A stretch of 64,000 nucleotides of DNA from an uncultured Planctomycetia bacterium (GTDB taxonomy: Bacteria; Omnitrophota; Gorgyraeia; Tantalellales; Tantalellaceae): contig CAYVIW010000076.1 in NCBI GenBank assembly GCA_964451815.1, positions 6,210-70,209 of the forward strand, given 5' to 3'. A program made the translations under genes and the position numbers. The stretch's first letter is position 1. Each line of letters begins with the position of its first letter. Of this stretch, positions 44,834 through 62,656 are shown one piece after another. The notes under the pieces were generated by a model. That model saw only the letters and a program-made list of their open reading frames with translations. It searched no databases and had not been told where the DNA came from.

Positions 44834-46057
44834 CTACTTCTTGAGGACTTTTTTGAATTCCTGCGTGAGCATCGGGATGACCTTGAAGATATCGCCAACT
44901 ATGCCATATGTGGCTATTTTGAATATAGGAGCTTCGGGATCTTTGTTTATGGCGACTATCGTACCGGAAGACTGCATTCCTATAAGATGCTGTATCTGCC
45001 CGCTTATGCCGCACGCTATGTAAAGTTTGGGACACACTGTCTTTCCGGTCTGCCCGACCTGATGGGAATAGGGTATCCAGTCCGCGTCAACAGCCGCGCG
45101 CGAAGCCCCCAGTGCGCCGTTAAGAGTGAGAGCGAGGTCTTTTATCATGCCGAAGTTCTCCGCCCCGCCAACTCCCCTGCCGCCGGAAACTATTATATCG
45201 GCCTCGGCCAAATTAACCGTCTCCTCTATCTCCTCCACTATATCCATAAGCCGGGTACGCGAAACGAAAGCGTCTTCGGGGAACTCTTCCTTTATGATCT
45301 CGCCTTTGCGGGCGGGGTCAGGGTCTGATTCTTTCATTACCTTGTGCCGGACTGTGGCCATCTGAGGTCTGTGATTGGGTGATATTATGGTCGCCATGAT
45401 ATTCCCGCCGAAAGCCGGACGGGTCTGAAGCAGTATCTTCTCTTTCTCGTCAATGTCAAGACCGGTACAGTCGGCGGTAAGACCGGCCCCCAAAGTCACG
45501 GCAACGCGCGATATAAGGCTTCTACCTATAACGGTGGCGCCGCAGAGAACTATCTCGGGCTTGTATTTAGAAACAAGCCCTGTAAGGACTTTTGTGTAAG
45601 GATCGTCCAGATACCCCTTGAGCTTCGGCGAATCCACAAGATAGACCTTGTCGGCTCCCCTGGCGATAAGCTCAGCGCACTCTCCCTCTACATTCTCACC
45701 CAGCAATACAGCGCAAAGGTTCGAGCCTAGCCGGTCGGCGAGTTCTCTGCCTTTTCCCAGAAGCTCAAAAACCACCGACTGGACTTTTCCCTTTTTTTGT
45801 TCGGCGAAAACCCAAACATCTTTGTAAAGTGAAAAATCTACCTTACTCTCCGGTTCTTTCTTTTCGATCACTATAGCCTGGAACTTGCACGCTTCCGCAC
45901 ATGCCCCGCAAAGCGTACATTTTGTAAGGTCTATTACGGCCTTCCTATCTTTCATCTCTATGGCGCCGAAAGGACAAACCTTTACACAAAGCGTACAACC
46001 CGTGCATTTATCTATCAAAACTTTTATCGCGTCACTTCCCACTCTATCTCCTGTCAC
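44834..46057 (-). CDS. etfA: Electron transfer flavoprotein alpha subunit with an N-terminal 2x[4Fe-4S] ferredoxin domain.
   Basis: Two CxxCxxCxxxCP motifs at the N-terminus, followed by an EtfA FAD-binding region. Confidence 0.85.
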   Translation of the reverse strand: MTGDRVGSDAIKVLIDKCTGCTLCVKVCPFGAIEMKDRKAVIDLTKCTLCGACAEACKFQAIVIEKKEPESKVDFSLYKDVWVFAEQKKGKVQSVVFELLGKGRELADRLGSNLCAVLLGENVEGECAELIARGADKVYLVDSPKLKGYLDDPYTKVLTGLVSKYKPEIVLCGATVIGRSLISRVAVTLGAGLTADCTGLDIDEKEKILLQTRPAFGGNIMATIISPNHRPQMATVRHKVMKESDPDPARKGEIIKEEFPEDAFVSRTRLMDIVEEIEETVNLAEADIIVSGGRGVGGAENFGMIKDLALTLNGALGASRAAVDADWIPYSHQVGQTGKTVCPKLYIACGISGQIQHLIGMQSSGTIVAINKDPEAPIFKIATYGIVGDIFKVIPMLTQEFKKVLKK

Positions 46058-46093
46058 TGATCCGTCAACAAAGGTGGCAGACTATAAGCCCTG

Positions 46094-46885
46094 TCACCCG
46101 ATAATTACATCCTTCAATAAACCCGCGAGTTCTTTAGCTATCTCATCGGGCTCCCCTTCTATTATCTGTCCGCCTCCTCTGGGCGGGGGGGTAAAAACTT
46201 TCACAACGCGCGTGGGAGACCCGTCCAGCCCTATTTTATCATCATCACAGAGCAGGTCATCCGCCGTCCATACCGGTATTTCCGCTTTCTTGGCCCTCAT
46301 CTTGCCCTTCAGAGAAGGAAGGCGAGGCTCATTTATCTCTTTTACCACAGTGAACACGACCGGCAGGGGTGTTTCTATAATATCATATCCCTCCTCTGTC
46401 ATGCGTTCGACCAGGGCCTTTTGCGCGTCTATTTTCTCTATCTTTTTCACATATGTGACCTGGGGAATATCAAGATGCATCGATATCCCGGGGCCTACCT
46501 GCGCGGTATCTCCGTCGGATGCCTGTTTGCCGCAAAATACCACCCCATGATCACCTATTTTCCTGATAGCCTGAGCGAGAGTATAGCTGGTTGCCCAGGT
46601 ATCGCTTCCGGCGAACTTCCTGTCGCTTACAAGAACAGCGCTGTCACAGCCCATGGATATGGCTTCACGCAGAGCTTCAGATGCCTGCGGTGGACCCATG
46701 CTTATCGCTACCACCTCGGCCCCCTCTCCAAACCGCTCCTTAAGACGCAGAGCTTCCTCTATGGCGTACATATCGAAAGGATTTATTACCGACTCCACGC
46801 CTTCTCTTTTGAGCGTGTTGGTAACGGGATCTATCTTAACATCTGTGGTGTTGGGAACCTGTTTTATGAGTACAAGTATTTTCAT
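46094..46885 (-). CDS. etfB: Electron transfer flavoprotein beta subunit.
   Basis: Begins MKILVLIKQVPNTTDVKID…. Confidence 0.9.
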   Translation of the reverse strand: MKILVLIKQVPNTTDVKIDPVTNTLKREGVESVINPFDMYAIEEALRLKERFGEGAEVVAISMGPPQASEALREAISMGCDSAVLVSDRKFAGSDTWATSYTLAQAIRKIGDHGVVFCGKQASDGDTAQVGPGISMHLDIPQVTYVKKIEKIDAQKALVERMTEEGYDIIETPLPVVFTVVKEINEPRLPSLKGKMRAKKAEIPVWTADDLLCDDDKIGLDGSPTRVVKVFTPPPRGGGQIIEGEPDEIAKELAGLLKDVIIG

Positions 46886-46981
46886 GGCTTTTTGGTCTTA
46901 CCCCTGTGAACGCAAACTCATGGGCTATGCCGCAGCTTACGTTCCTACCAGAGCTTACTCCGCTTCCTTCAAAACTCCCGT

Positions 46982-48136
46982 TTACTTCGCCAGCCCTTGC
47001 TTTATAAGCGCCGACGCTATGACACTGCGCTGTATCTGGTTAGTCCCTTCATATATCTGGGTTATTTTGGCGTCTCTCATGAGCTTCTCGACAGGGTACT
47101 CCTTCATATAACCGTATCCCCCGAAAAGCTGAACGGCGTCGGTCGTAACTTTCATCGCCGTATCTGAGGCAAAAAGCTTGCACATTGCCGAAACTTTAGC
47201 TATGTTCTTAGCTCCAGAATCGACCATCCTCGCGGCCGAGTATATCATGGCTCTCGAGGCCTCGACCTGTGTCGCCATATCCGCCAGCATCCACTGTACT
47301 CCCTGGAAAGACGATATCGACGCTCCGAACTGTCTTCTTTCATGGGTATATTTCACAGCTTCGTCAACGGCCCTCTGAGCTATACCTACAGCCTGAGCCG
47401 CCACGCCGGGCCTTGAGTGGTCGAAAGTCTTCATGGCCACAATGAACCCGAGCCCTTCCTTGCCCAACAAATTCTCTTTAGGTATCTTACAATCGGTAAA
47501 AATTACCTCTCTTGTGGCCGACCCTCTTATGCCGAGCTTATCTTCTTTTTTACCGAAACTTACTCCCGGGGTATCCTTGTCCACAATAAAAGCGCTTGCG
47601 CCGCGGGCGCCTTTAGACCTGTCGCTCATAGCTATAACTGTATACACCTCGGCTTCCCCGCCATTGGTGATCCATTGCTTCGTACCGTTAAGTATGTAAT
47701 GGTCTCCATCTTTTTTAGCGGTGGTCTTTATCCCGCCGGCGTCCGAGCCGGCTTCGGCTTCGGTAATGCAGAACGCCGCCAGCTTTTTCCCCGACGCTAT
47801 GTCAGGCAGATATTTTGCTTTCTGCTCTTCGTTAGCGTACAAAAGTATCGGATATGTACCGAGACCCGTAGCCGCAAAAGCAAGAGCTATTCCCCCGCAT
47901 CCCCATGAAAGCTGCTCGGTCGCTATGGCCATCTCAAGAACCCCGCCGCCCATGCCGCCGTATTCCTCGGGTATATAAACTCCACATATGTCTGACTCGG
48001 CGAAGATCTTAACTATGTCCCAGGGGAACTCGTTCTTCTCATCGTACTCAGCGGCGACCGGCTTTATCTTTTCCTCCGCTATCTGGTGGCAAAGTTCCTT
48101 TATCATCTGTTGTTCTTCGGTCAAGAGATAATCCAT
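46982..48136 (-). CDS. Acyl-CoA dehydrogenase (short-chain/butyryl-CoA type).
   Basis: ACAD fold; I placed the start at MDYLLTEEQQ. Confidence 0.85.
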   Translation of the reverse strand: MDYLLTEEQQMIKELCHQIAEEKIKPVAAEYDEKNEFPWDIVKIFAESDICGVYIPEEYGGMGGGVLEMAIATEQLSWGCGGIALAFAATGLGTYPILLYANEEQKAKYLPDIASGKKLAAFCITEAEAGSDAGGIKTTAKKDGDHYILNGTKQWITNGGEAEVYTVIAMSDRSKGARGASAFIVDKDTPGVSFGKKEDKLGIRGSATREVIFTDCKIPKENLLGKEGLGFIVAMKTFDHSRPGVAAQAVGIAQRAVDEAVKYTHERRQFGASISSFQGVQWMLADMATQVEASRAMIYSAARMVDSGAKNIAKVSAMCKLFASDTAMKVTTDAVQLFGGYGYMKEYPVEKLMRDAKITQIYEGTNQIQRSVIASALIKQGLAK

Positions 48137-48235
48137 TTGGGTCTCCTTGTTTTTTCCTGAACCTGGTCCGCTCAAGGCGTTCAGCTTAAAATATTCGTTT
48201 TCCCGCGAGAAAGTCCGAAGCGTTTAAAGGGCAAA

Positions 48236-49495
48236 TTACTCTTTGAACTTTTTCAGGGTAAGAGTAACGTTATGCCCGCCAAACCCAAGAGAGTTACTTA
48301 TGGCGATATCAACCCCGGCTTCCCGCGCGACATTAGGCACGTAATCCAGATCGCAATCGGGATCGGGATTCTCGTAGTTTATGGTAGGAGGTATAACGCT
48401 ATGCTTTATCGCAAGCGCGCAAGCTATGAGCTCTGTAGCGCCTGTAGCTCCCAAAAGATGCCCGGTAACTCCCTTTGTGGAGCTTACCGGCATATCGTAA
48501 GCCCGCTGACCGAACACCTTCTTAATAGCGCCGGTTTCCATTTTATCGTTAAGTATTGTAGACGTTCCATGAGCGTTTATGTAGTCCACATCCGAGGGGT
48601 CTACGCCCGCGTCCTTAAGTGACCCTCTCATGCATCTTACAGCCCCGTCCCCTTCGGGGTCTGGGGCCGTCATGTGATAGGCGTCCCCGCTCATCCCGTA
48701 GCCGGCGATCTCACAGTATATTTCCGCGCCGCGCTTTCTGGCGTGCTCGAGTTCTTCCAGAACTACCACACCGGAGCCTTCGCCCATTACGAACCCGTCC
48801 CTGTCCCGGTCAAAAGGCCGCGAAGCATGCTGCGGATCATCGTTGCGCATGGAAAGAGCTTTTAACGCGCAAAACCCACCGAATCCCATTTTGGTTATGG
48901 CCGCTTCGGACCCGCCCGCCACCATTATATCGGCTTCGCACCTCTGTATTATTTTGAAAGCGTCCCCTATAGAATGGCTGCCGGTAGCACACGCGGTTAC
49001 AGCCGAAGAATTCGGCCCCTTGAACCCGAGCTCTATGGATACCATTCCCGAAGCCATATTGACTATCAGCATCGGGATAAGGAATGGCGATATCTTAGAG
49101 GCCGCTTTGGCTTCGTCGTCCGAACGAATATACTTCTCATGCTCGGCTTCAACCGTATGAAGGCCTCCTATTCCTGAACCTATATATACGCCCGCTTTTT
49201 CCTGGATGATTTTATCCCGATCAAGACCGCTATCCTCCACGGCCATCTTAGCGGCGGCTATGGCGAACTTAACGAACTTGTCGAGACGCCTTTCCTGTTT
49301 CGGGTTCATATACCGCTTAGCGTCGAAATCCTTTACCTCCGCGGCTATGCGGGAGTTAAAGGGGGAGGGATCAAAAACGGTAAGGCGTGTCACACCTGTC
49401 TTACCATTGATGAGGGAATCCCAGTAATCTTTGACGTTGTTCCCTACGGGAGTAACAGCGCCTACTCCCGTAAGGACTACTCTTCTTTTGGACAT
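48236..49495 (-). CDS. fabF: 3-oxoacyl-ACP synthase II.
   Basis: Cys-His-His ketoacyl synthase motifs. Confidence 0.9.
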   Translation of the reverse strand: MSKRRVVLTGVGAVTPVGNNVKDYWDSLINGKTGVTRLTVFDPSPFNSRIAAEVKDFDAKRYMNPKQERRLDKFVKFAIAAAKMAVEDSGLDRDKIIQEKAGVYIGSGIGGLHTVEAEHEKYIRSDDEAKAASKISPFLIPMLIVNMASGMVSIELGFKGPNSSAVTACATGSHSIGDAFKIIQRCEADIMVAGGSEAAITKMGFGGFCALKALSMRNDDPQHASRPFDRDRDGFVMGEGSGVVVLEELEHARKRGAEIYCEIAGYGMSGDAYHMTAPDPEGDGAVRCMRGSLKDAGVDPSDVDYINAHGTSTILNDKMETGAIKKVFGQRAYDMPVSSTKGVTGHLLGATGATELIACALAIKHSVIPPTINYENPDPDCDLDYVPNVAREAGVDIAISNSLGFGGHNVTLTLKKFKE

Positions 49496-49521
49496 CTTAA
49501 TTTTCGGAAGGTTGCTGACTC

Positions 49522-49764
49522 TTATTTACCGGCGGCTTTTTCTTCTATGTAAGCGATAGCTTCGCCTACCGTAGTAAGCTTTTCCGCGTCTTCATCAGGT
49601 ATCTCAGCACCAAACTCCTCTTCGAGAGCCATTACCAGCTCCACAGTATCGAGGGAATCCGCTCCAAGATCGTCGATGAATTTGGCGTCATCTTTAACTT
49701 CCTCGATCTTTACACCAAGCTGCTCAGCTACGATCGATTTTACCTTTTCAGCTATCTCTGACAT
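49522..49764 (-). CDS. acpP: Acyl carrier protein.
   Basis: [17 protein letters not shown] motif. Confidence 0.95.
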
Positions 49765-49869
49765 TTTTCCTCCTTTTATATTACAGTTAGGTAAAACTGC
49801 CTCTCAAATATCCGCTACCTGTATCAACTATTAACCTATGTCGCTTCGCTCCATAAGTTATGGTCTCGT

Positions 49870-50613
49870 TTACATTACCATCCCGCCGTCTATTTTTATG
49901 ACCTGCCCCGTTATATAAGAAGAGCTTTCGCTTGCCAGGAAAAGCGCCAGCCTGGCTACATCTCGAGTCTCTCCCATGCGCCCCAGCGGTATCAGGCTTA
50001 AAAGACTTTCCCGGGCTTCTTCTCCCAGCTTATCGGTCATATCTGTCTTTATAAAACCGGGCGCTATGGCATTAGCCGTTATATTACGCGACCCAAGTTC
50101 CTTGGCGACGGTCTTTGTCAAAGCTATAAGGCCGCCCTTGCTTGCCGAATAATTGGCCTGACCCGCATTGCCCATGACCCCTATTATAGAGGCCATGTTT
50201 ATTATTCTTCCCGACCTGGCTTTCATCATGGGGCGGGTAACGGCTTTTATGCAGTTGAAGGCGCCTTTAAGATTAACATTAATAACGGCGTCCCATTCGT
50301 CTTCCGACATCCTCATAATAAGATCATCTCTGGTGATGCCGGCATTGTTGACAAGTATATCCAATGTGTTGAAATTGTCAAGGGTTTTCTTGACAAAATC
50401 GTTCACTTCAACGGCGCTTGTTACATCTACCTTTCCCGTCATAACCTTGCGTCCGGTCGCCGACTCTATTTCACTTTTAGCGGCGGCAAGGTCCGACTCG
50501 TTTACGTCACATATGGCTATATCCGAACCGTTCTCGGCGAAAAGCATGGCGATATCTCTGCCTATGCCCCGTCCTCCTCCGGTTATAAATGAGACCTTAT
50601 CTTTAAGAAACAT
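49870..50613 (-). CDS. fabG: 3-oxoacyl-ACP reductase.
   Basis: SDR family protein with a GGGRGIG cofactor-binding motif. A GGAGGTG ribosome-binding site precedes the ATG at 50613. Confidence 0.9.
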   Translation of the reverse strand: MFLKDKVSFITGGGRGIGRDIAMLFAENGSDIAICDVNESDLAAAKSEIESATGRKVMTGKVDVTSAVEVNDFVKKTLDNFNTLDILVNNAGITRDDLIMRMSEDEWDAVINVNLKGAFNCIKAVTRPMMKARSGRIINMASIIGVMGNAGQANYSASKGGLIALTKTVAKELGSRNITANAIAPGFIKTDMTDKLGEEARESLLSLIPLGRMGETRDVARLALFLASESSSYITGQVIKIDGGMVM

Positions 50614-50728
50614 TAGCACCTCCGTATTTTCCGCACATAATTGTAACAGCATTGAATATTTTGTCAAGCGATTTTGCCGCGCAAGCTTCAAATAAAGGCT
50701 TTTTATATAAGCCGGGAAGTTATTATGT

Positions 50729-51297: not shown

Positions 51298-52860
51298 TCA
51301 GTTTTCAAGCATCTCGGAAAACCCACCTCCGGTATAAGCGTCTATATAAGCCGTAAGCTCTTCTATTCTGGAAAGTCTGGTCTTAAGGCCGGAACCATCC
51401 TCTTCAGTTAGGGACCGTGCCTCTTTTATCAGTTTTTTCCTCTCAAAATACAACCTGGTTACATCCTCAAGAATATTATTCCTGAGCTGGACCATGAGCT
51501 TGCTCCTGGTGTCGATCGACGTCTGAGAGGGATTCCAGATAATATTCCCCAGATCCCATACCATGGTAGCCTTCCAGTCGTTCCTCCTGTCGCGTGGACC
51601 ATCCACTATATATGTTCTGGTCGCGCTCTTGTATATTTCCAGATTGTCATTATAGACTTCCCCATAGGCAACAGTAAGCCTGGGGAGCACGGCGTTCCAC
51701 CTGGCGCCCCGCCTCCAACCTTTTATTTTGTCCGGGCTCACCTCGGCATACTCTATGGCCATCTTCTGTGTGGTTGTTATATCCGGACCGGCGGGCGGGA
51801 ATCGAAAACCGGAAGATGAGTTTCTGAATTCGGTGCCATAACCGAACGTGTTCAATTCCCGCGTATATACTTTCCTCTCGGTTGTTATCAGGATATTGCA
51901 GGCACCTTTTTCATCCATGTGAATATCAAGGCCCGTTATGTCCCCTTCCGCCGAAGCCTCGAATATCGAGGTCCACGCGCGGGATACGGGATCTCTCAAA
52001 AAAACCTTGTTCCGGACCGCCGCCATTATGCCCGCCCTCGTTCCGATAGCCATGTTGATCCCCGAAGATGACAACCCATCGACATTGATGTGTTCAGACT
52101 TTTCAGTAAGAGCGTCAAAAAGAACGATCCCCCTTTTGGTGGAAACAACAACCCCTGAAGGGTATCCCACCCCTACATACCTTATGGGCGGCAGGTCAGG
52201 CTCTTCATCTTCCGTTCTATCTTCAAACTCGGAACTATCTCCGTCTGAAACGATGAAATACCTTTTCCATTCCATGGCTCCATCACCTGAATACATAAGG
52301 TCTTCCCCACAAGCCGCGTAGATGACACCGGAGTCTGACACGACGCTTTCTATCTGCCCGGACCTGGGTCCCGTGAAGACAGGCCGTAGGTCCTTGCCCT
52401 CCACAATGAACATCTCATCCACAGTCCACACAATGATCTTGTCTCTGTTCGCGACGAATTCCACCCCCCTGAGACCTTTTTTACCCGGTATATGCCGCCA
52501 TGCCTTACGGGAATGCCCCGCGTTGCCGGGAATAGTATTTATGAACAACCCTTCCATGGTCGCGGCGAGCACTCTTTCCCCCGCGAAAACTATCCCTGTA
52601 ACATGGACATTCCCCGCGGGTAAAGCGGCTTTCTCCCAGTTCTTTCCCCGGTCAATAGTATAGTAAAGCCCGTCTTGTGTTCCTATGTATACCATATCAC
52701 TGCCACTGACGCCTTTTACGCATGTAAGAACAGAGCCTCTTCCTATATTAGCGGTAATATCCTCGAACCCATAAACATTAATGGCACCCGCGAACAATAT
52801 AAAAAACAATAAAAACCGTCCCACGAGCGCCTTGGCCTTTTTCCTTCCCGTCTTTTCCAT
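51298..52860 (-). CDS. Hypothetical secreted protein with BNR/Ycf48-like beta-propeller repeats and a C-terminal coiled coil.
   Basis: Signal peptide followed by repeats resembling the BNR motif S-x-D-x-G-x-T-W (TIDRGKNWE, YSGDGAMEWK). Confidence 0.5.
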   Translation of the reverse strand: MEKTGRKKAKALVGRFLLFFILFAGAINVYGFEDITANIGRGSVLTCVKGVSGSDMVYIGTQDGLYYTIDRGKNWEKAALPAGNVHVTGIVFAGERVLAATMEGLFINTIPGNAGHSRKAWRHIPGKKGLRGVEFVANRDKIIVWTVDEMFIVEGKDLRPVFTGPRSGQIESVVSDSGVIYAACGEDLMYSGDGAMEWKRYFIVSDGDSSEFEDRTEDEEPDLPPIRYVGVGYPSGVVVSTKRGIVLFDALTEKSEHINVDGLSSSGINMAIGTRAGIMAAVRNKVFLRDPVSRAWTSIFEASAEGDITGLDIHMDEKGACNILITTERKVYTRELNTFGYGTEFRNSSSGFRFPPAGPDITTTQKMAIEYAEVSPDKIKGWRRGARWNAVLPRLTVAYGEVYNDNLEIYKSATRTYIVDGPRDRRNDWKATMVWDLGNIIWNPSQTSIDTRSKLMVQLRNNILEDVTRLYFERKKLIKEARSLTEEDGSGLKTRLSRIEELTAYIDAYTGGGFSEMLEN

Positions 52861-55371: not shown

Positions 55372-55494
55372 AGTTTGCCTCCCTGTGATCAATATTATAC
55401 ACCACATCCGCGGAGAATGTGAAAACCGCCATGAAAAAAGTAGCACTATACCACAGACGCTTTATCCAACTCACACAACTACAATAAGTTGCGA

Positions 55495-55561
55495 CCTAAA
55501 CATGGGTGAACGCTCCCACTGCCGATCTATGATAAAAATGACAGGAATACCCATGTTTAGG
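55495..55561. repeat. 13-bp perfect inverted repeat pair (CCTAAACATGGGT and ACCCATGTTTAGG) separated by 41 bp, with a third partial copy at 55581-55590.
   Basis: Read directly from the sequence. It lies in the 376-bp gap between the aldo/keto reductase start and the stop of the giant gene. Confidence 0.6.
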
Positions 55562-55747
55562 TCACAAGTCCTTCAAAATAGGATGTTTAGATAAAGCGTC
55601 CTTAGGTTCAAGTAACTAGTGCAACACCCGTAGTCTGTTATAATGGCAGATGAAAGGAGTTGCTTATGAATAAAAATGGGGGCACGTTAAAAGGTTAATT
55701 TTCCAGACGGCACAAGTAGACTCTGGTGTCTGCGGTGTTTTGTGATA

Positions 55748-58700
55748 TTACAGCGAGGTATAGACCGCTTCCATGGCGCTTATGTAGTCCCGTATCTCCT
55801 CGTAGTTTATAAGTGTTATCCTTACAACTAAAGCCCCGGTAAAAAGTTTTGCCAGAAGCTCAGCCGGATTTTCTCTATATTGCGAAACTACCCCCATATC
55901 CAGATAACCGGCTCTTCCGAAATGTTCTATCATCTCACTAGCAAGATAACGCATGAACGGATCGTCCTGTTCCATTCCGAAATGAACCTTCAACCTTGTG
56001 TAGTTAAGAGACTGGGTAGCAAAGTGAAGGAGCCTTGGAATATTCTCAAAATGGCTTGCCGAACCCTCGTTCTGGCTAAAAGACACTTTTATCCGAGACT
56101 TAAAATCTCTGAATTTTTCCGTGTCCAGTAGACTGTTAACTTGGTCCCTTGTTGCCTCATTAACACAGTTTATAAGCGCCGCAGGAAACTGCTTTTCGCT
56201 CTTTAACATCTCATCTATAACACGTTCAAGCATTTTCTCGACCAGTTTTCCGTCAAACGAATGATAAGAAGTGTTGATGCCTTCTCTTGTGTACTTACGC
56301 GACATTTTTCGACCGTATCTCTCGGTGGTACTTTCGGAATAATAGTTGTCATTCTCATTACAGACGATATTGCGCACTCCTTTCCTCACGTTGTCTTGCA
56401 TGAACCTTATTTCTGTAGTAAGGGCCAAGTTGCCAGCTGGATCCATGTGGTCCTGGAGGCCATACAGAAATATACTTGGCCCTATCCGCCCGGCAATGTT
56501 AAAATCAATTTTCTGGTCTCTGATCTTTTCGAAATTATGTTTTATCAGGTTTTCTTCATCTCTTGTAAGTTCGCGTAGCTCTATTTCCTTCTGCGTTTTA
56601 TTAAGTTCGTTGATAAACCCTTCATCCCCTATATTCAAGGCTCTGTCAAAGTCCATAACTCCTCTCTCTATCATGACCTCAAGCCCTATCCTGGGCTCCT
56701 CGCCTACACCTTTGGCAACTGTATGGGCGTTTATCCCGCTCACAGCAAGCCCAGGCGAACCATGTATCATCTCATGCGCCAGCGCCATAGCGTGGGCCTT
56801 CGCTTTGGGGCTTTTCATACCTAAAAGCTCCTGATTAAGATATATAACCCGTTCACCCTCGATGACCCCGAAGTGACCCATGACCCTTTCATCCATGGCT
56901 ATGGCCTTTACAGTTATTTTCTTGTCTGTTATTTCCTGGATGATCTTAAGTATCTCTTTTCTTTCGTCTTCGGTCAGAGTACTCGGAATACCGTCCTTCG
57001 GCTTCATAAGATCTTCCAAAGTCTCGGCCAAACCACTTAGGTCGGGGCTTTCAGGTGTTATACGCACCTTCACCTCGGTACTTACCTCTGCCCCTGGATC
57101 CTTGTGCGACACCACAAGAAAACCGTTTTCCTCTCTTGTGGTAAATCCTTCTGTTTTAAGTTGTCCATCCGACCCCATGAACTTTCCGATATTGCCGGCA
57201 ACTGGGGCTAAATCCGACGCGGCAGGGGACAACAACCTCTCATATTCTTTTCTTTCTAATCTCCCGGGCTTCTCAAAAACCTTAATGTATTTTGGTTCAA
57301 ATATCCAGTCTTCTCCATGATCCGCCAACAATCTCTTGAAATAATTTGCCTTTTGCATTGTTTCGATCAGTTGGTCCGCATGGGCCTCTTTATCCTCGAC
57401 TGTGGCCATGGTGTCCAACCCTGGCAATAAGTATGCACCCATTTCCAACCAAGTGAAAACAGTGCTCCACTCCCCCGGGGCCTTCATTTCCAATAACCCT
57501 GCTTGACCAGTGACGAATCTCCCTTTTTCTTCGGAAAGCTTCTTGTCGGAAAGCTCCTGGTCCAGCCTGTAATGCTCATTAAAAAGACGCATCAACTCTT
57601 CTCTCTGCTCATCTGGAACCTCCAACATATTTGTCGCAAAATGACCTTGTCCACTTAAAAGCACATGCAAAATAAGCTGACCAGTGTCCCTCACATCTAG
57701 CGCTTCTTCCACTCCCCCCTTTTCTACATAATTTTTTGCAAATCGGGCTGCTTTTGGCAGATCCATCTTCTGCTGCTCATGCTGCTGTAGAAATAAACTT
57801 ATATTATCGTGTGCTAGGAGTCCACCTTCTGCAGCTAAAGCCGGATTGATAAAATTGTCAGCGATACTATTCCACATATGACGCGGGTAAACTCCCTCTT
57901 GAGCCAACAGCTGGTAAAACATAGACCAGTCTCTAACTATAAGGCGTTTCTTTCCCTCTGCCTTCTTTTCCTCTGCCTTCTTTTCCTCTGCCAAAATGTG
58001 TTCCCTTAGATAATAAGCCTTCCGGAAAAGGTTATCTATGATCGTGAGCACTTGTTCCTCAGTCGCCTCTTCTCCCTGGGATATTAACTGAGCTACTATA
58101 TCGCCCGCTATATTACCTGCGAGATGGTCAGTTGCCATTTTTTTTATGACTTCTTCAACCCAACCGCCTTCGAATCCGGCCGTCAGAACTACCGCATTTA
58201 TGAGTTCAGGTGTTATTGGGTTTTCGGACGACAAGATCTCATCTATGTCTTCAACACTAGTAGCGCCTATAAATGCTGGTAACAAGCGTTTCTCGAAAGT
58301 ACCGAACAAAAGATCTATCTGTTGCTCAAAGGACAATTCCCCGTGATACCCGTTGTAAAGTAAATACATAAAGAGCTGGCTTACACTGTCTGGTCTTAAG
58401 TCCTCTTTCGGCTTTAACAATTGCTCCATATTGCCGGCATCGATCGGGTCGGACTCCAAAAGATTCAGCAAGTATTCGCTGTCTTCATCGCCTATCATGA
58501 TCCTGCCCGATTCCAACTCTACTGCAATAGCATTAATATATGCCGTCACCTTCTCGACATCTTCCAAACTGCCTATCCTCTCTCCGACCTTTTCCCTTAA
58601 TTGCCCCATGGCTTCTTTGTCTGCGAACCAGCCCCCCAGATAACTCCATGCTTCTTCAAGGTTTCTGCTTTTCAGTTTCTCGATCGTCTCATTTACCGAT

Positions 58701-61700
58701 TTCCTATTAAGTCCAAGTTCCCTAAAATCTGGACCCTCTGCAATATTTTTTAGTTCTTCTAACCACGAATTGATCCGTGTTTCTCCGGCTTCACCTACAA
58801 ACGCCGAATTAAGGTCATTGACCATCTCGGCGGTTACTTCTGGCTCTTCAACTTCTAACAGGTCTCTTAATTTTTTATTCCTCTGGACCTCGTTCATGTT
58901 TTCGCCCTCAGTTAAGGCAATGTACATCGCCCAAATAGCTATCTTACTATTTTTATCCAGACCCGAGATAAGAGCATCTGCCGTGCCCTGTCCAAGAAAT
59001 TTTCTGAACTCAACATTAGCTTTTGCAGAATCCCTTATGATGTCTTTTTCCGGGTCCTCATCAAGAAGAAGCGAAACAAACTTACCCAGGTCACTCAGAA
59101 AAGTATCGTCGCTGTCAGCGGGCGTTTCACCCTTGGAGAGATCTTTTACAGCATTCTTTACTCTGTTATGGTGATCTCCTTCATATTTCTTATCTTCGAG
59201 ATGTTCGCGGAGAGATTTTCCATATGCGATATCGAATATCGTGGTTGCCAGACCGTACAGATCTGTTTTTTGCCCATATATACGGCTCTCTGTAGCTTCT
59301 CTTGGCAACCTTCCCGGTGTCCCCTTCGTTGCCGCCATTTCTACTCCTTTGCCTTCGGGATCATAGAGAGCTATGCCGAAATCCCCCAGTTTAATTTTAG
59401 GGTTTCCCGCATCATCAAGCGTTACAAAAATATTATCAGGCTTGATATCCGCGTGTATAACCCCCTTCTCATGCAAAGATCGAACTATCTGAACAAGCTG
59501 GTGTATTATCTGCTCTTTTTGTCTGGGGTTGAGCTCTCGCCCCTGGGTTTTTAGTTCATCGAGAAAAGACCGAAGGGACTTACCCCCGTGTTCCATAACC
59601 AGATAATCATGCTTTCTGCCATCTGCTCCCTCAAAACTGCCTGACTCAATGATGCCTATTGTGCCTCTATTCCCTGAAAGATACCTCATCACCAATACTT
59701 CTCTTATCCTAGAGACATTGTTCATTAAAAAGTTATTCCCTGTCCCGGCAGGATCGACTACTGTAGCATCGGAATCATAATAATGCTGACGATCGAAGAT
59801 CTTGACCGCTACTTCTTTTTTTTCGTCTCCGATCTTAGCCCCATAAACGGACGCGAACCCGCCTTTGCCCAGAAACCTGTTTTGAAAACGGAACGGATTA
59901 CGGTAAAAATTAAAATCGATTTTATTCCCGGAATACCCCATTATCCATTTCCAGTTTTTAGGTATTTGGGATACTTCAAGGGTTAATTCAGAGCCGATCC
60001 TGGGAGGACTGTCTGACTGCTGGTTTATCAACACGTCTGATAAAACCTGTCCGATCTCCCGATCAGGGAAAAAACCTGTTTCGGAAGATTTTTCGGTTAC
60101 CTCCGGAAAAACTATGGCGCTGAGCAGCTCAAGTTCTGCCTGAAGTTGCTCGTTTGTCATTCTGGTTAGATCCCTGCTGAAAACAATACGGAAAAGGTCC
60201 TCCCATTGTTGAGGCGTAAGCTCGGGTGTTTTAGAGCTAATAACCTTTTTGAGCCATGGGGCCTTCTTCGCGATCGCTTCATCAAGCGTGAGATCTAACG
60301 GGTCCACCGGGGTCTCCACTGCCGGACGCCTAGCCAGATAATCTCTCCGGGCGGTCCGCCTCTCCTCATCGGTCATGGACCAGACAGGTTTGTCCAGAAG
60401 ATCCGGGACCCGGGAAAGATCAACTTCTGTCTCTCCTCTTAAAAAGGCCTCTTCCACTCTCTCCGCGAAAAAATGATCGCCGTATATGCCGGCTATTATT
60501 TCGTGCAGGATCACCGCATCACGCTCATCACCTGTAAGATCGGCATTGATCCTTATTCCTCTCCCACCTGCATGTCCGCGGAAAGAAATGCCCTCTACCG
60601 TCCTCGCCAGGCTTTCACCTTGGCTGTTTTTCCCCACTGCCAGTATATCTATTTCGTCGGCTACAGCACCTAACCCAGCTTCACCAAGCCAATTTTTGAG
60701 CTTCGCCATAATTCCCTCAATATCACCTATGTCATTGAAAGCCCCTTCCGGCAGTTTTTCCATCTCAGCGTCCACATACTGCTGATGTACGGCGTCCATG
60801 AGAGCTCTTCTTGATACCACAACAGGAGAGTCCTCCATGCCCTTTATTTTGACAGAAAGCTCAGTATCGCTTACATCTATGCCGGCTATCCCCGCCTGTA
60901 AAGCTTCAAGTCCCCGTTCCTTTAGTATGAAACTCCGAAGCACGACCGATGTTCTCCAATTATCAAGACCTTCGGCGCCCCAGACATCCTCTCCAAGATT
61001 ATTGAGCATGCTGGCTATCTGCATCATGGAGCTCTGTGCCAGGGCCGAGCTCAACATCTGCTGAATGTCTGCGGTCTGGCCGGCCAAAAGGTCAAAATAC
61101 GGGTTCACATAATCCTTCTCCATGGTGAACTTGGGCATTATGGATACATAAGAATAACCCTGTTCTTCGAAAAGCGCGCAGAGGTTCTCGGTATGGAACC
61201 CTCCTGTCATTATTATTGCCGCTTCCCCTCCCGCCGGGACCTCCGAAAAAAGCATGTTCTCCACAAAAGCCTCATCACGTGCGAACGAATACTCATAGAA
61301 CATCATTATCTCGGCAAGATAATTATCGAGCCGAGAAATCCCCGGGGAGGGTCGTGCGGTAATGCCGTATCTGGGACCTTCTCTCGCGATAAATTTCAGG
61401 AAACGTTCAGCACTAAAAGAATCTTTGTTAGATTTGTAATAGGCAAAATCATTCTTGGTAAGCATTATCTTGAATATATTGTCTGTTAACGCCAGGTTCC
61501 TTGAAAGGATGTCCAGCTCCCTCTCCGTATCGCTGCGGAACAAAGGCTCCTTAACTGCTCTTTCGAGATCATCGAGTTCCTCCATGACCTTGAACCGGTC
61601 CACCGCGTCAAAAAGCGAAACATAAACTATGTAACCCGAAAGGGCCGGATAACCCGAAATATCAAAGCCGCATTCCCGCGCCTTTCCTAGGAGATAGTTA

Positions 61701-62656
61701 TAGAACTCTTTCAGCGATATGCGCTTTGTCTTGAACTTCACCGTAGTTGAGACAAGCTCTCTCATCTCCGCCGATGAGAGGATGGACTTCATGCGGTCAA
61801 TAAGAACGGTCCTCTCGGCATTGGCCTTTCGGAAATCAACGCTATCTTCCTTCTCCATGGCCTGAGCTATCAGGTAGATATTCGGGAAGGTCTTAACCGA
61901 AATACCCCTTTCCCTGGCGTTCTTTATCATAAAAGACAGGTATTCCCTGAACTCCATGTTGCCGGCCTTGTAAGAGCTGTAAGCCATGTCCATTTTCAGA
62001 AGGTCCGGTGTAAATATGTGACGTTTGAGATTATTAAAGATATGGCGCAGCTCCTTAAGGTACCCTTCTACCTCTTCCTTATAACGCAAAGAGTCGCGGT
62101 ACACCGCCAGGTTTTTCAGGTAAAGCTCTCTGTCCTCTATGCCCCATAGAGACACCCTGTCGAGGTTGTTTATGGCGTAGAACTCGGCTCCGTTAACCTC
62201 GCCCCTTTTCAGGAAATACTCTGCCACCTCGCGCCGTATCTCACCGCCCGAGATATTAGTGAAAACCGTAAGATCGTACTCCCCGGCTCCGCCTTCGAGG
62301 TTCAGCATGCTAATGCCATATTCCTTGTTTAGATAATCTATTACTCCGGATACCTTCTGCTGCGCGAAATAGTTACAATGCGCGTCCTGGATATGTATAA
62401 CGGTTCTCGCGGCATCACCCCTTTGGGAATACCTGACCTCTCCGAGATGCGCGGGCATGGTAAAGGTCTCAACATCCAGCGAGGCGTACCCTCCTGGGGA
62501 ATGAAGATCTTCCAGATCAACGTCAAACATAGCGTCCGACGCACCGAGCATAGCCTCCGAATCAAGAGTCAGACAGGAGATAAAGAAAACCGCGGAGACC
62601 GCGATCGCCGTCATCCTCATAAATATCCCTGTCTTTTTTCCGAAGATCATCTTCAT
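55748..62656 (-). CDS. Giant predicted secreted multidomain protein of 2302 aa. It combines an N-terminal signal peptide, a TraB/GumN/Tiki-like domain, a eukaryotic-like Ser/Thr protein kinase domain, a long alpha-helical region, an HExxH (HEMIH) zincin-like motif and an unassigned C-terminal domain.
   Basis: A GGAG ribosome-binding site precedes the ATG at 62656, and the N-terminus is a hydrophobic signal sequence. TraB-like motifs include IIMTGGFH…GY. The kinase region (about 59100-59900) has the Gly-rich loop LGKGGFASVYG, the VAVK lysine, HADIKPDN and GDFG. ALAHEMIHG lies at about 56762-56790. Confidence 0.7.
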   Translation of the reverse strand: MKMIFGKKTGIFMRMTAIAVSAVFFISCLTLDSEAMLGASDAMFDVDLEDLHSPGGYASLDVETFTMPAHLGEVRYSQRGDAARTVIHIQDAHCNYFAQQKVSGVIDYLNKEYGISMLNLEGGAGEYDLTVFTNISGGEIRREVAEYFLKRGEVNGAEFYAINNLDRVSLWGIEDRELYLKNLAVYRDSLRYKEEVEGYLKELRHIFNNLKRHIFTPDLLKMDMAYSSYKAGNMEFREYLSFMIKNARERGISVKTFPNIYLIAQAMEKEDSVDFRKANAERTVLIDRMKSILSSAEMRELVSTTVKFKTKRISLKEFYNYLLGKARECGFDISGYPALSGYIVYVSLFDAVDRFKVMEELDDLERAVKEPLFRSDTERELDILSRNLALTDNIFKIMLTKNDFAYYKSNKDSFSAERFLKFIAREGPRYGITARPSPGISRLDNYLAEIMMFYEYSFARDEAFVENMLFSEVPAGGEAAIIMTGGFHTENLCALFEEQGYSYVSIMPKFTMEKDYVNPYFDLLAGQTADIQQMLSSALAQSSMMQIASMLNNLGEDVWGAEGLDNWRTSVVLRSFILKERGLEALQAGIAGIDVSDTELSVKIKGMEDSPVVVSRRALMDAVHQQYVDAEMEKLPEGAFNDIGDIEGIMAKLKNWLGEAGLGAVADEIDILAVGKNSQGESLARTVEGISFRGHAGGRGIRINADLTGDERDAVILHEIIAGIYGDHFFAERVEEAFLRGETEVDLSRVPDLLDKPVWSMTDEERRTARRDYLARRPAVETPVDPLDLTLDEAIAKKAPWLKKVISSKTPELTPQQWEDLFRIVFSRDLTRMTNEQLQAELELLSAIVFPEVTEKSSETGFFPDREIGQVLSDVLINQQSDSPPRIGSELTLEVSQIPKNWKWIMGYSGNKIDFNFYRNPFRFQNRFLGKGGFASVYGAKIGDEKKEVAVKIFDRQHYYDSDATVVDPAGTGNNFLMNNVSRIREVLVMRYLSGNRGTIGIIESGSFEGADGRKHDYLVMEHGGKSLRSFLDELKTQGRELNPRQKEQIIHQLVQIVRSLHEKGVIHADIKPDNIFVTLDDAGNPKIKLGDFGIALYDPEGKGVEMAATKGTPGRLPREATESRIYGQKTDLYGLATTIFDIAYGKSLREHLEDKKYEGDHHNRVKNAVKDLSKGETPADSDDTFLSDLGKFVSLLLDEDPEKDIIRDSAKANVEFRKFLGQGTADALISGLDKNSKIAIWAMYIALTEGENMNEVQRNKKLRDLLEVEEPEVTAEMVNDLNSAFVGEAGETRINSWLEELKNIAEGPDFRELGLNRKSVNETIEKLKSRNLEEAWSYLGGWFADKEAMGQLREKVGERIGSLEDVEKVTAYINAIAVELESGRIMIGDEDSEYLLNLLESDPIDAGNMEQLLKPKEDLRPDSVSQLFMYLLYNGYHGELSFEQQIDLLFGTFEKRLLPAFIGATSVEDIDEILSSENPITPELINAVVLTAGFEGGWVEEVIKKMATDHLAGNIAGDIVAQLISQGEEATEEQVLTIIDNLFRKAYYLREHILAEEKKAEEKKAEGKKRLIVRDWSMFYQLLAQEGVYPRHMWNSIADNFINPALAAEGGLLAHDNISLFLQQHEQQKMDLPKAARFAKNYVEKGGVEEALDVRDTGQLILHVLLSGQGHFATNMLEVPDEQREELMRLFNEHYRLDQELSDKKLSEEKGRFVTGQAGLLEMKAPGEWSTVFTWLEMGAYLLPGLDTMATVEDKEAHADQLIETMQKANYFKRLLADHGEDWIFEPKYIKVFEKPGRLERKEYERLLSPAASDLAPVAGNIGKFMGSDGQLKTEGFTTREENGFLVVSHKDPGAEVSTEVKVRITPESPDLSGLAETLEDLMKPKDGIPSTLTEDERKEILKIIQEITDKKITVKAIAMDERVMGHFGVIEGERVIYLNQELLGMKSPKAKAHAMALAHEMIHGSPGLAVSGINAHTVAKGVGEEPRIGLEVMIERGVMDFDRALNIGDEGFINELNKTQKEIELRELTRDEENLIKHNFEKIRDQKIDFNIAGRIGPSIFLYGLQDHMDPAGNLALTTEIRFMQDNVRKGVRNIVCNENDNYYSESTTERYGRKMSRKYTREGINTSYHSFDGKLVEKMLERVIDEMLKSEKQFPAALINCVNEATRDQVNSLLDTEKFRDFKSRIKVSFSQNEGSASHFENIPRLLHFATQSLNYTRLKVHFGMEQDDPFMRYLASEMIEHFGRAGYLDMGVVSQYRENPAELLAKLFTGALVVRITLINYEEIRDYISAMEAVYTSL

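Follow-up and report, generated by a model that had tools for sequence, protein, structure and literature searches.

A kinase-carrying 2302-residue protein from an Omnitrophota genome belongs to a modular family with conserved ends and a swappable middle

The stretch analyzed here is a 64,000-nucleotide (nt) window of contig CAYVIW010000076.1, derived from an uncultured bacterium of the phylum Omnitrophota. It carries a complete open reading frame (ORF) for a protein of 2302 amino acids (aa) which belongs to a large family with conserved ends and a variable middle. Nucleotide positions refer to the window and aa positions to the 2302-aa protein. The ORF starts with ATG, and a GGAG sequence is located 8-11 nt upstream. 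The gene and its parts, in the order of the protein, are:

55748-62656, minus strand: complete, uninterrupted ORF (2302 aa plus stop codon), member of a modular family with a Tiki-like N-terminal domain and a conserved C-terminal domain (CTD)

62552-62656, minus strand: predicted Sec-type signal peptide, aa 1-35, with K2, K7, K8 and R14 in the n-region and the h-region at aa 15-31

60917-62491, minus strand: N-core, aa ~56-580, predicted α/β domain like that of the Tiki/ChaN/erythromycin-esterase superfamily, with a helical insertion of ~300 aa (aa ~175-470)

62378-62398, minus strand: IHIQDAH, aa 87-93; the first catalytic pair is proposed to be D91 and H93, invariant in 21 of 21 aligned sequences

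62288-62302, minus strand: NLEGG, aa 119-123; the invariant E121, 28 residues past H93, is proposed as the catalytic Glu

61193-61207, minus strand: TGGFH, aa 484-488; the invariant H488 is proposed as the second catalytic His

60332-60889, minus strand: N-extension, aa ~590-775, small β+α domain with GHAGG (H695), HEIIAG (H718, E719) and DH (H728)

59045-59881, minus strand: Hanks-type Ser/Thr protein kinase, aa 926-1204, Pfam PF00069

57212-59044, minus strand: helical middle, aa 1205-1815 (~600 aa), from aa ~1332 on common with the closest relative P0002

57948-57992, minus strand: three copies of a 15-bp tandem repeat encoding AEEKKAEEKKAEGKK, aa ~1556-1570 (Tandem Repeats Finder score 83, 96% matches)

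56477-57211, minus strand: HE-motif module here named Czn, aa ~1816-2060, a mobile domain with H1961-E-M-I-H1965

55751-56476, minus strand: CTD, aa ~2061-2302, predicted flavodoxin-like α/β sandwich with the family tail …NYEEIRDYISAMEAVYTSL-COOH

An earlier, sequence-only reading of the window had described the ORF as one gene and had quoted a number of motifs from it. All of these were found: IHIQDAH at aa 87, MTGGFH at 483, GKGGFASV at 930, VAVK at 949, HADIKPDN at 1068, GDFG at 1091 and HEMIH at 1961. The 15-bp tandem repeat reported at the same time is likewise present. An identical 2302-aa protein was encoded on contigs of three separate metagenome samples of the Joint Genome Institute (JGI) with neighbours alike (seven contigs read), and the order of N-terminal domain, middle and C-terminal domain recurred across the family. 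We therefore regard the ORF as a real single gene. A frameshifted fusion of ordinary genes, the alternative that had been raised against it, is ruled out by the identical protein in three samples together with this family-wide collinearity.

A homologue search yielded 311 proteins of 1272-3858 aa, and all source names bearing an organism were Omnitrophota or Omnitrophica. Additionally, a pattern scan in which each species was represented by one genome detected at least 553 encoding stretches with the N-terminus of the family. These were located in metagenome-assembled or single-amplified genomes (MAGs, SAGs) of Omnitrophota or in MAGs named 'uncultured Planctomycetia', and among the sources were Ca. 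Omnitrophus magneticus, Ca. Tantalella remota and, with two copies or more, a complete chromosome of 1.43 Mb. Every phylum-level record name was Omnitrophota, and the family is thus restricted to Omnitrophota-type genomes. Counts of motifs, transmembrane (TM) segments and tails given below refer to the first 120 of the 311 homologues, and counts of loci to 76 loci fetched from the pattern scan.

Comparison by blastp revealed a mosaic composition. The first ~575 aa (often ~775-810) were 36-80% identical to the relatives and always matched their N-terminus, and in a subset of matches the last ~480 aa were 23-35% identical to the extreme C-terminus. The middles could not be aligned unless both proteins carried a kinase, which was then found elsewhere in the protein with 25-36% identity. 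The closest relative, P0002, shared 80% identity in the N-module and 35% in the C-terminal part (aa 1332-2302 of the query) and had no kinase; for P0021 the values were 39% in the N-module versus 33% elsewhere. Since the identity of the N-module does not track that of the rest, we assume an exchange of middles or a gene conversion of heads among paralogues.

Complete members had at least 943 aa, and the largest exceeded 3900 aa, a length at which the fetched locus ended. The shortest ones (943-954 aa) consisted of the N-module and the C-terminal region with nothing recognizable in between; one of 943 aa is encoded at L012:9845-12676. In the middles of other members Pfam identified Hanks and ABC1 kinases, M48 and M50 peptidases, PEP-utilising, cNMP-binding, metallophosphatase, PPDK_N, HATPase_c, FHA, SpoIIE, GNAT, HD and TPR domains as well as a glycosyltransferase and an amidase; about half of the members had a middle without any recognizable Pfam domain. 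The universal chassis consists of the signal peptide, the N-core and the CTD, and the middle is swappable. The domain order of the 2302-aa protein, first taken as unmatched and undescribed, represents one case within a family that has hundreds of members, conserved ends and a variable middle, and the unit of interest is this family and not the single gene.

In two MAGs/SAGs a family gene was split (L039:541-7809 and L043:4587-10847), with the N-core in the first ORF and the tail in the second. These are probably frameshifts or assembly errors and not real two-gene versions.

The kinase is the sole domain of the 2302-aa protein recognized by Pfam. Its match to PF00069 (E 9.6e-27, 94.5 bits versus a cut-off of 31.7) was highly significant, and the complete non-RD Hanks core proposed from the motifs was borne out. 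The catalytic residues are complete, comprising the Gly loop (aa 930-937), K952, H1068-A-D1070, N1075 and D1092-F-G, and an Ala replaces the Arg in the HAD of the catalytic loop, which places the domain among the non-RD kinases. Judged by the residues kept, the kinase is apparently active. In the PDB, 553 kinase sequences matched at E ≤ 1e-5, led by Aurora C, ULK1 and CaMKI; these structural relatives are ordinary Ser/Thr kinases. Matches to kinase equivalogs of NCBIfam (PknB, LanL, MAD6, LegK1 among many) were partial and far below the cut-offs; we therefore consider the domain a generic Hanks kinase.

The N-core was modelled with AlphaFold2 from an alignment of 21 sequences, and the core of the model was confident. 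Strands were predicted at aa 84-89, 117-120, 169-173, 478-483 and 502-508 with helices in between and the helical insertion of ~300 aa, so that the model shows a parallel β-sheet core flanked by helices, the α/β arrangement of the Tiki superfamily fold. The fold matches of the model were (PDB entry, score):

Bcr136: 2rad, 6.6

Bcr135-like: 2qgm, 6.1

HopBA1: 5t09, 6.0

EreC: 6xcq, 5.9

TraB protein: 8bqs_DQ, 5.6

In the model IHIQDAH lies at the end of the strand aa 84-89, with D91-x-H93 following strand 1, E121 following strand 2 and H488 following the GGF turn. A further invariant residue, R460, precedes H488 by 28 positions. The regular expression H[IVL]QDAH was found in 117 of the 120 homologues. 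The Tiki-fold protease RRSP uses E3900-x-H3902, E3930 (+28), R4001 and H4030 (+29), and in Bcr135 the pair H85/E113 is also 28 residues apart (PMC6254334). The spacing from His to Glu is therefore 28 in all three proteins, and that from Arg to His is 28 in the N-core versus 29 in RRSP. The set of two His, two acidic residues and a basic residue is present in the N-core, with Asp instead of Glu as the first acid.

Sequence profiles did not recover this relationship. The query N-core matched no TraB/Tiki model in Pfam or NCBIfam, including PF01963, PF04187 and PF05139. When each member of the alignments A2 and A3 was compared with Pfam, only one of 21 relatives matched, weakly, to PF04187 (ChaN, E 0.047), and A3 gave none; profile searches of the PDB with A2 and with the core-only A3, from which the helical insertion had been removed, returned nothing at E ≤ 10. 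Thus the suggestion of a Tiki/TraB-like N-terminus stands with regard to the predicted fold and the spacing of the catalytic residues, but not as a sequence match in Pfam, NCBIfam or the PDB. Going by the model and the motifs, we are fairly confident that the N-core would represent a divergent new branch of the Tiki/ChaN/Ere superfamily. Because D91-x-H93, E121, R460 and H488 are invariant, it is probably hydrolytically active, as a protease or as an esterase.

The C-terminal domain had been described as free of recognizable motifs, a description that does not hold. A conserved amphipathic helix closes it, with …[SA]-L as the last residues, and the consensus of this tail is …I-x-x-[IV]-[DN]-[FYW]-E-E-I-x-[DE]-[WYF]-x-x-[AS]-Q-E-A-V-x-x-[SA]-L-COOH. 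The tail was kept in 103 of the 120 homologues (~86%), including members whose C-module had escaped blastp. An exhaustive profile search with the C-module alignment among 1.84 billion representative proteins retrieved only 192 proteins at E ≤ 0.001. Local hidden Markov models (HMMs) detected the CTD in 42 full-length relatives, in each of which it is placed at the C-terminus or no more than ~45 residues away from it. The N-core was present in 31 of these 42; of the remaining 11, several seem to be truncated at their 5' end. Neither the N-core nor the CTD has a model in Pfam (2025 copy) or NCBIfam, in line with the unmatched architecture noted at first.

Between the two ends the query carries two domains with HE motifs. 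The N-extension resembles a degenerate HE-motif domain lacking the second His. In the Czn module HEMIH (aa 1961-1965) is located at the end of a predicted helix, and H1961, E1962 and H1978 (H162, E163 and H179 of the C-module alignment A1) are invariant together with G-x-G and G-x-Q-D-x-L-D-P. The HE pair was invariant in 22 relatives as well, with a fifth motif residue of Glu in 16, His in five and Leu in one. Two fold searches revealed neither a zincin nor any significant fold match, and no peptidase family of Pfam or NCBIfam was matched by the query or by 19 aligned C-modules. Of the zincin-like motif proposed earlier, the motif itself and its HE pair are confirmed, but, with a mostly acidic fifth residue and no zincin among the fold matches, a zincin is not established. 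Such a reading is possible, and the sequence would support at most a metal-binding H-E…[H/E]…H site.

The HMM of the first HE domain matched 57 of the 120 homologues (its HAGG motif 43) and that of the second matched 20 (motif pattern 22). Since both were found in only a part of the homologues, we regard them as optional modules. Czn occurs in one to three copies at variable internal positions, also in proteins with an N-core at their start and a length of up to 7727 aa. Alignment of the two HE domains by hhalign was weak (E 0.0012, probability 19%) and at most hints at an internal duplication. The helical middle (aa 1205-1815) gave no match in Pfam.

An export signal had been predicted as well, and it is supported. 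The only hydrophobic segment of the protein is N-terminal (aa ~11-30), has a hydrophobic core of ~17 residues and is followed by a predicted signal peptidase I site, S-E-A|M, and an acidic stretch. In the c-region the homologues strikingly share the pattern [TV]-D-A-[WRS]-A with A, V or I as the next residue, which looks like an AxA-type signal peptidase I site at which the pre-protein would be cleaved. A lipoprotein was considered and rejected: the relatives do not share the Cys at position 28, which makes a lipobox unlikely, and the conserved site is of the AxA type. No internal TM-like segment was found beyond the N-terminal one in the 2302-aa protein, and for this reason the kinase is expected outside the cytoplasm of the producer.

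If the N-terminal segment were instead an uncleaved anchor, the protein would be a membrane-tethered cytoplasmic signalling kinase. The recognizable payloads of the family, all of the cytoplasmic signalling type (kinase, FHA, SpoIIE, cNMP-binding, HATPase), would agree with this, as would the JGI annotation of the 2302-aa protein as a serine/threonine protein kinase. However, the four positive charges before and the acidic residues after the hydrophobic segment correspond to the export orientation, most relatives retain a cleavage motif of the AxA type, and two family members bear the NCBI names 'secreted' (P0058) and 'twin-arginine translocation signal domain-containing' (P0075). We consider a tethered cytoplasmic kinase highly improbable.

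The gene had been reported to be richer in AT than its neighbours and to be flanked by repeats. Its GC content is indeed slightly lower (46.4% versus 49.6% in the remaining window), but this drop is restricted to aa 831-2302 (43-47%, 3-6 points below the N-module); the N-module has a genome-like 49-51%. A step in GC content therefore lies inside the gene, between the low part at 55748-60166 (linker, kinase, middle and CTD) and the N-module at 60167-62548. The step could reflect a payload half of different origin or faster evolution, or simply its Lys/Glu-rich composition. The flanking repeats were not confirmed, as only two-copy matches at chance level and one hairpin with 19-nt arms (55489-55567) were found. 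With weak AT-richness and no meaningful direct or inverted repeats bracketing the gene, a mobile island was considered and rejected.

Two further features border the gene:

55489-55567, no strand assigned: inverted repeat of two 19-nt arms, 95% complementary, around a 41-nt spacer, ~180 nt past the stop codon

62978-64000, minus strand: 3' end of a tandem upstream paralogue, frame open to the window edge, product ending in …ETFLAVRRSL

The inverted repeat sits between the stop codon of the 2302-aa gene and the aldo-keto reductase gene that follows ~300 nt downstream. Possibly it forms a structure at the transcript end; the terminator scan did not recognize it as a canonical terminator, and the promoter and terminator scans as a whole gave results at chance level.

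The upstream paralogue aligned with the CTD of family members. Its length on the source contigs is 4478-4485 aa, and it matches ABC1 and, weakly, Peptidase_M48 and Hydrolase_2; the pairing of M48 and ABC1 also occurs in the N-core-bearing relatives P0048 and P0085. From its C-terminus and payload we infer that the ~4480-aa protein is a family member. Tandem pairs of family genes were found in 12 of the 76 loci.

The remaining neighbours encode the aldo-keto reductase, a glycoside hydrolase of family 1, FabG, acyl carrier protein (ACP), FabF, acyl-CoA dehydrogenase, the β and α subunits of electron transfer flavoprotein (ETF) and SMC. The cluster FabG-ACP-FabF-acyl-CoA dehydrogenase-ETFβ-ETFα (Fer4-fused) is located at 44834-50691 on the minus strand, ~5 kb downstream of the gene. 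The same cluster was found beside family genes in ~10 species, there directly upstream (e.g. L038:4705-9210). A functional link was rejected, as this order differs from the one in the window; we read the association as synteny of an insertion-tolerant region and not as an operon.

Two other protein families recur near family genes. A 520-aa protein with a signal-peptide-like N-terminus and no Pfam match is encoded at 51298-52860 (minus strand), and full-length homologues with 34-36% identity lie a few kb downstream of family genes of two other species, at L016:16840-18429 and L035:10625-12298. A second family of ~875 aa with an N-terminal signal peptide is located directly upstream of family genes in 7-9 species (L059:1816-4443, L008:6957-9581, L005:6580-9207, L019:6867-9509, L018:6749-9496 and others); the 64-kb window has none. 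By eye its C-terminus (…PVNMEELIDAYEHARKTLIAA) is like the family tail, but this C-terminus is not picked up by the tail HMM.

The arrangement of conserved ends around a hypervariable mosaic payload, together with tandem arrays of paralogues, recalls classical polymorphic or MARTX-type inter-bacterial toxins, in which trafficking ends enclose a toxic centre and a cognate immunity protein is encoded. Tiki folds are furthermore part of known toxins and effectors (RRSP of MARTX, PMT, HopBA1). Yet the variable part is internal and the C-terminal tip conserved; the downstream gene encodes the aldo-keto reductase and no small immunity-like ORF follows; Pfam shows no RTX repeats, PAAR, Rhs, LXG or cysteine protease domain. 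The signal is an N-terminal Sec signal peptide and not the C-terminal signal of a type I secretion system (T1SS), and the payloads are signalling-type enzymes and not nucleases, deaminases or pore-formers. A toxin of this kind is very unlikely. From the earlier assignment to effectors or polymorphic toxins we keep an effector-like function as a proposal; the classic polymorphic-toxin model does not fit the internal variability, the missing immunity gene and the housekeeping neighbours.

Taken together, the evidence leads us to favour, as the somewhat likelier view, that the 2302-aa protein is a Sec-exported modular protein of a large Omnitrophota-specific family, with a conserved chassis and the kinase as its payload. 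The pre-protein would be exported by Sec. The end modules would serve envelope anchoring or sorting in all members, and the Tiki-like domain might contribute a proteolytic maturation. The middle would be the payload, composed here of the degenerate HE domain, the non-RD kinase, ~600 aa of helices and the HExxH mini-domain. Since an ATP-dependent payload would lie outside the cytoplasm of the producer, an action at the surface or in the interior of a partner or prey cell is favoured, where the kinase could obtain ATP. Such an effector role fits the host-dependent or predatory lifestyle inferred for Omnitrophota (PMC10066038).

Several observations weigh against this interpretation. No secretion system and no immunity-like, host-interaction or mobile-element gene was found nearby (about 40.6-64 kb). 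Outside the cytoplasm, it is not obvious what would supply the kinase and the other ATP- or nucleotide-dependent payloads with substrate. Internal TM-like segments are present in 43 of the 120 relatives; the topology thus differs among members, and the payloads of some may face the producer's own cytoplasm. Fold searches with the CTD matched only the generic flavodoxin-like fold, which makes its sorting role a guess, and delivery into another cell is pure inference.

Alternatively, the protein could reside in the envelope of the producer as a small cousin of the giant, Archaeovorin-like coat proteins and form part of a tethered multi-enzyme layer. The payloads overlap with those of the giants (PPDK_N, HATPase_c, GNAT, TPR, HD), N-cores head proteins of up to 7727 aa, the longest found, with sizes grading towards the giants, and no dedicated delivery machinery lies nearby. 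Moreover, 94% of the long Omnitrophota proteins have a signal peptide or TM helices (10.64898/2026.06.07.730766). The kinase would then be a pseudo-enzyme scaffold or use locally available nucleotide. It keeps all catalytic residues, which argues against a purely structural role, and the 2302-aa copy has neither internal TM segments nor an adhesin-type domain. The N-termini of published giants, furthermore, have no identifiable domains or carry C39/S8 peptidases (bioRxiv 10.1101/2023.11.21.568195). In our view, residence in the envelope is rather unlikely.

Beyond the single protein, the exported effector reading can be extended, tentatively and with little confidence, to a phylum-wide cassette system. 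Its chassis would comprise the signal peptide, an active Tiki-like protease and a C-terminal sorting or docking domain with a fixed tail. It would accept dozens of cytoplasmic-type enzyme domains, among them phosphatases, kinases and enzymes that handle nucleotides, deliver them to or display them on partner cells, and be the seed from which giant proteins arise by serial domain insertion.

Omnitrophota are uncultivated and ultra-small and are thought to be predators or parasites, and their conspicuous long multidomain proteins are not understood in function. A common, putatively exported, Tiki-like head combined with a CTD and tail on proteins of ~0.9 to at least 7.7 thousand aa makes the family countable, alignable and traceable through the phylum. 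It also nominates catalytic residues and a C-terminal motif for mutagenesis and proteomics. Labels such as 'serine/threonine protein kinase' or 'hypothetical protein' hide this common architecture. In addition, the paradox of ATP-dependent enzymes behind a signal peptide is sharpened, and it would be resolved most easily if they act in another cell.

Among known systems the Tiki/TraB/PrgY/GumN-ChaN-erythromycin esterase superfamily, including RRSP (MARTX DUF5), the PMT C1-C2 domains and HopBA1, is nearest to the N-core. In contrast to these, the N-core has Asp and not Glu as the first acid, is split by the helical insertion of ~300 aa, does not match PF01963, PF04187 or PF05139 significantly and heads modular proteins of one to eight thousand aa, always paired with a specific C-terminal domain. 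It would thus add to the superfamily a divergent branch which current profile libraries miss.

LegK1-type effector kinases of Legionella are alike in placing a Hanks-type kinase on an exported protein, and the NCBIfam model T4SS_LegK1 gave a partial match (E 2e-9). However, this match reached 36.5 bits versus an equivalog cut-off of 550, with PknB, LanL and MAD6 scoring equally or better. There is also no context of a type III or type IV secretion system, and the kinase is a generic Hanks kinase and no LegK orthologue.

MARTX and polymorphic toxins share with the family a large size, secretion, conserved regions around mosaic, exchangeable enzymes and paralogues that differ by payload. Unlike MARTX, the 2302-aa protein lacks, according to Pfam, RTX or glycine-rich repeats, a cysteine protease domain and a T1SS signal, and it carries a Sec-type signal instead. 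Unlike polymorphic toxins, the family keeps its payload internal and its C-terminus conserved, and an aldo-keto reductase gene takes the downstream place of an immunity gene.

A likeness is also found in the giant proteins of the same phylum, with which the family shares a signal peptide or membrane association, several enzymes per protein and cytoplasmic-type enzymes predicted outside the cell. Long multidomain proteins of Omnitrophota, mostly with a signal peptide or TM segments and with PPDK_N, HATPase_c, GNAT and TPR domains, have been described (bioRxiv 10.1101/2023.11.21.568195; 10.64898/2026.06.07.730766; PMC10066038), and their cytoplasmic-type domains pose a similar puzzle (bioRxiv 10.1101/2023.11.21.568195; 10.64898/2026.06.07.730766). 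These studies of giants treat ORFs of 10-30 thousand aa or more; the protein described here has 2302 aa and no internal TM helices. Archaeovorins are defined by at least 30,000 aa, many TM helices and a content of glycosyl-transferases, hydrolases and methylases (bioRxiv 10.1101/2023.11.21.568195). The 2302-aa protein, without an internal TM-like segment and with the kinase as its only recognizable domain, lies outside this definition. The Tiki-like N-terminal domain, the tail motif and the head-and-tail family are not mentioned in the papers on long Omnitrophota proteins (West-Roberts et al. 2023; Seymour et al. 2023; the 2026 complete-genome preprint). What is known are thus long multidomain proteins in Omnitrophota; what is new is the architecture at the level of the family, of which the 2302-aa gene is an ordinary member.

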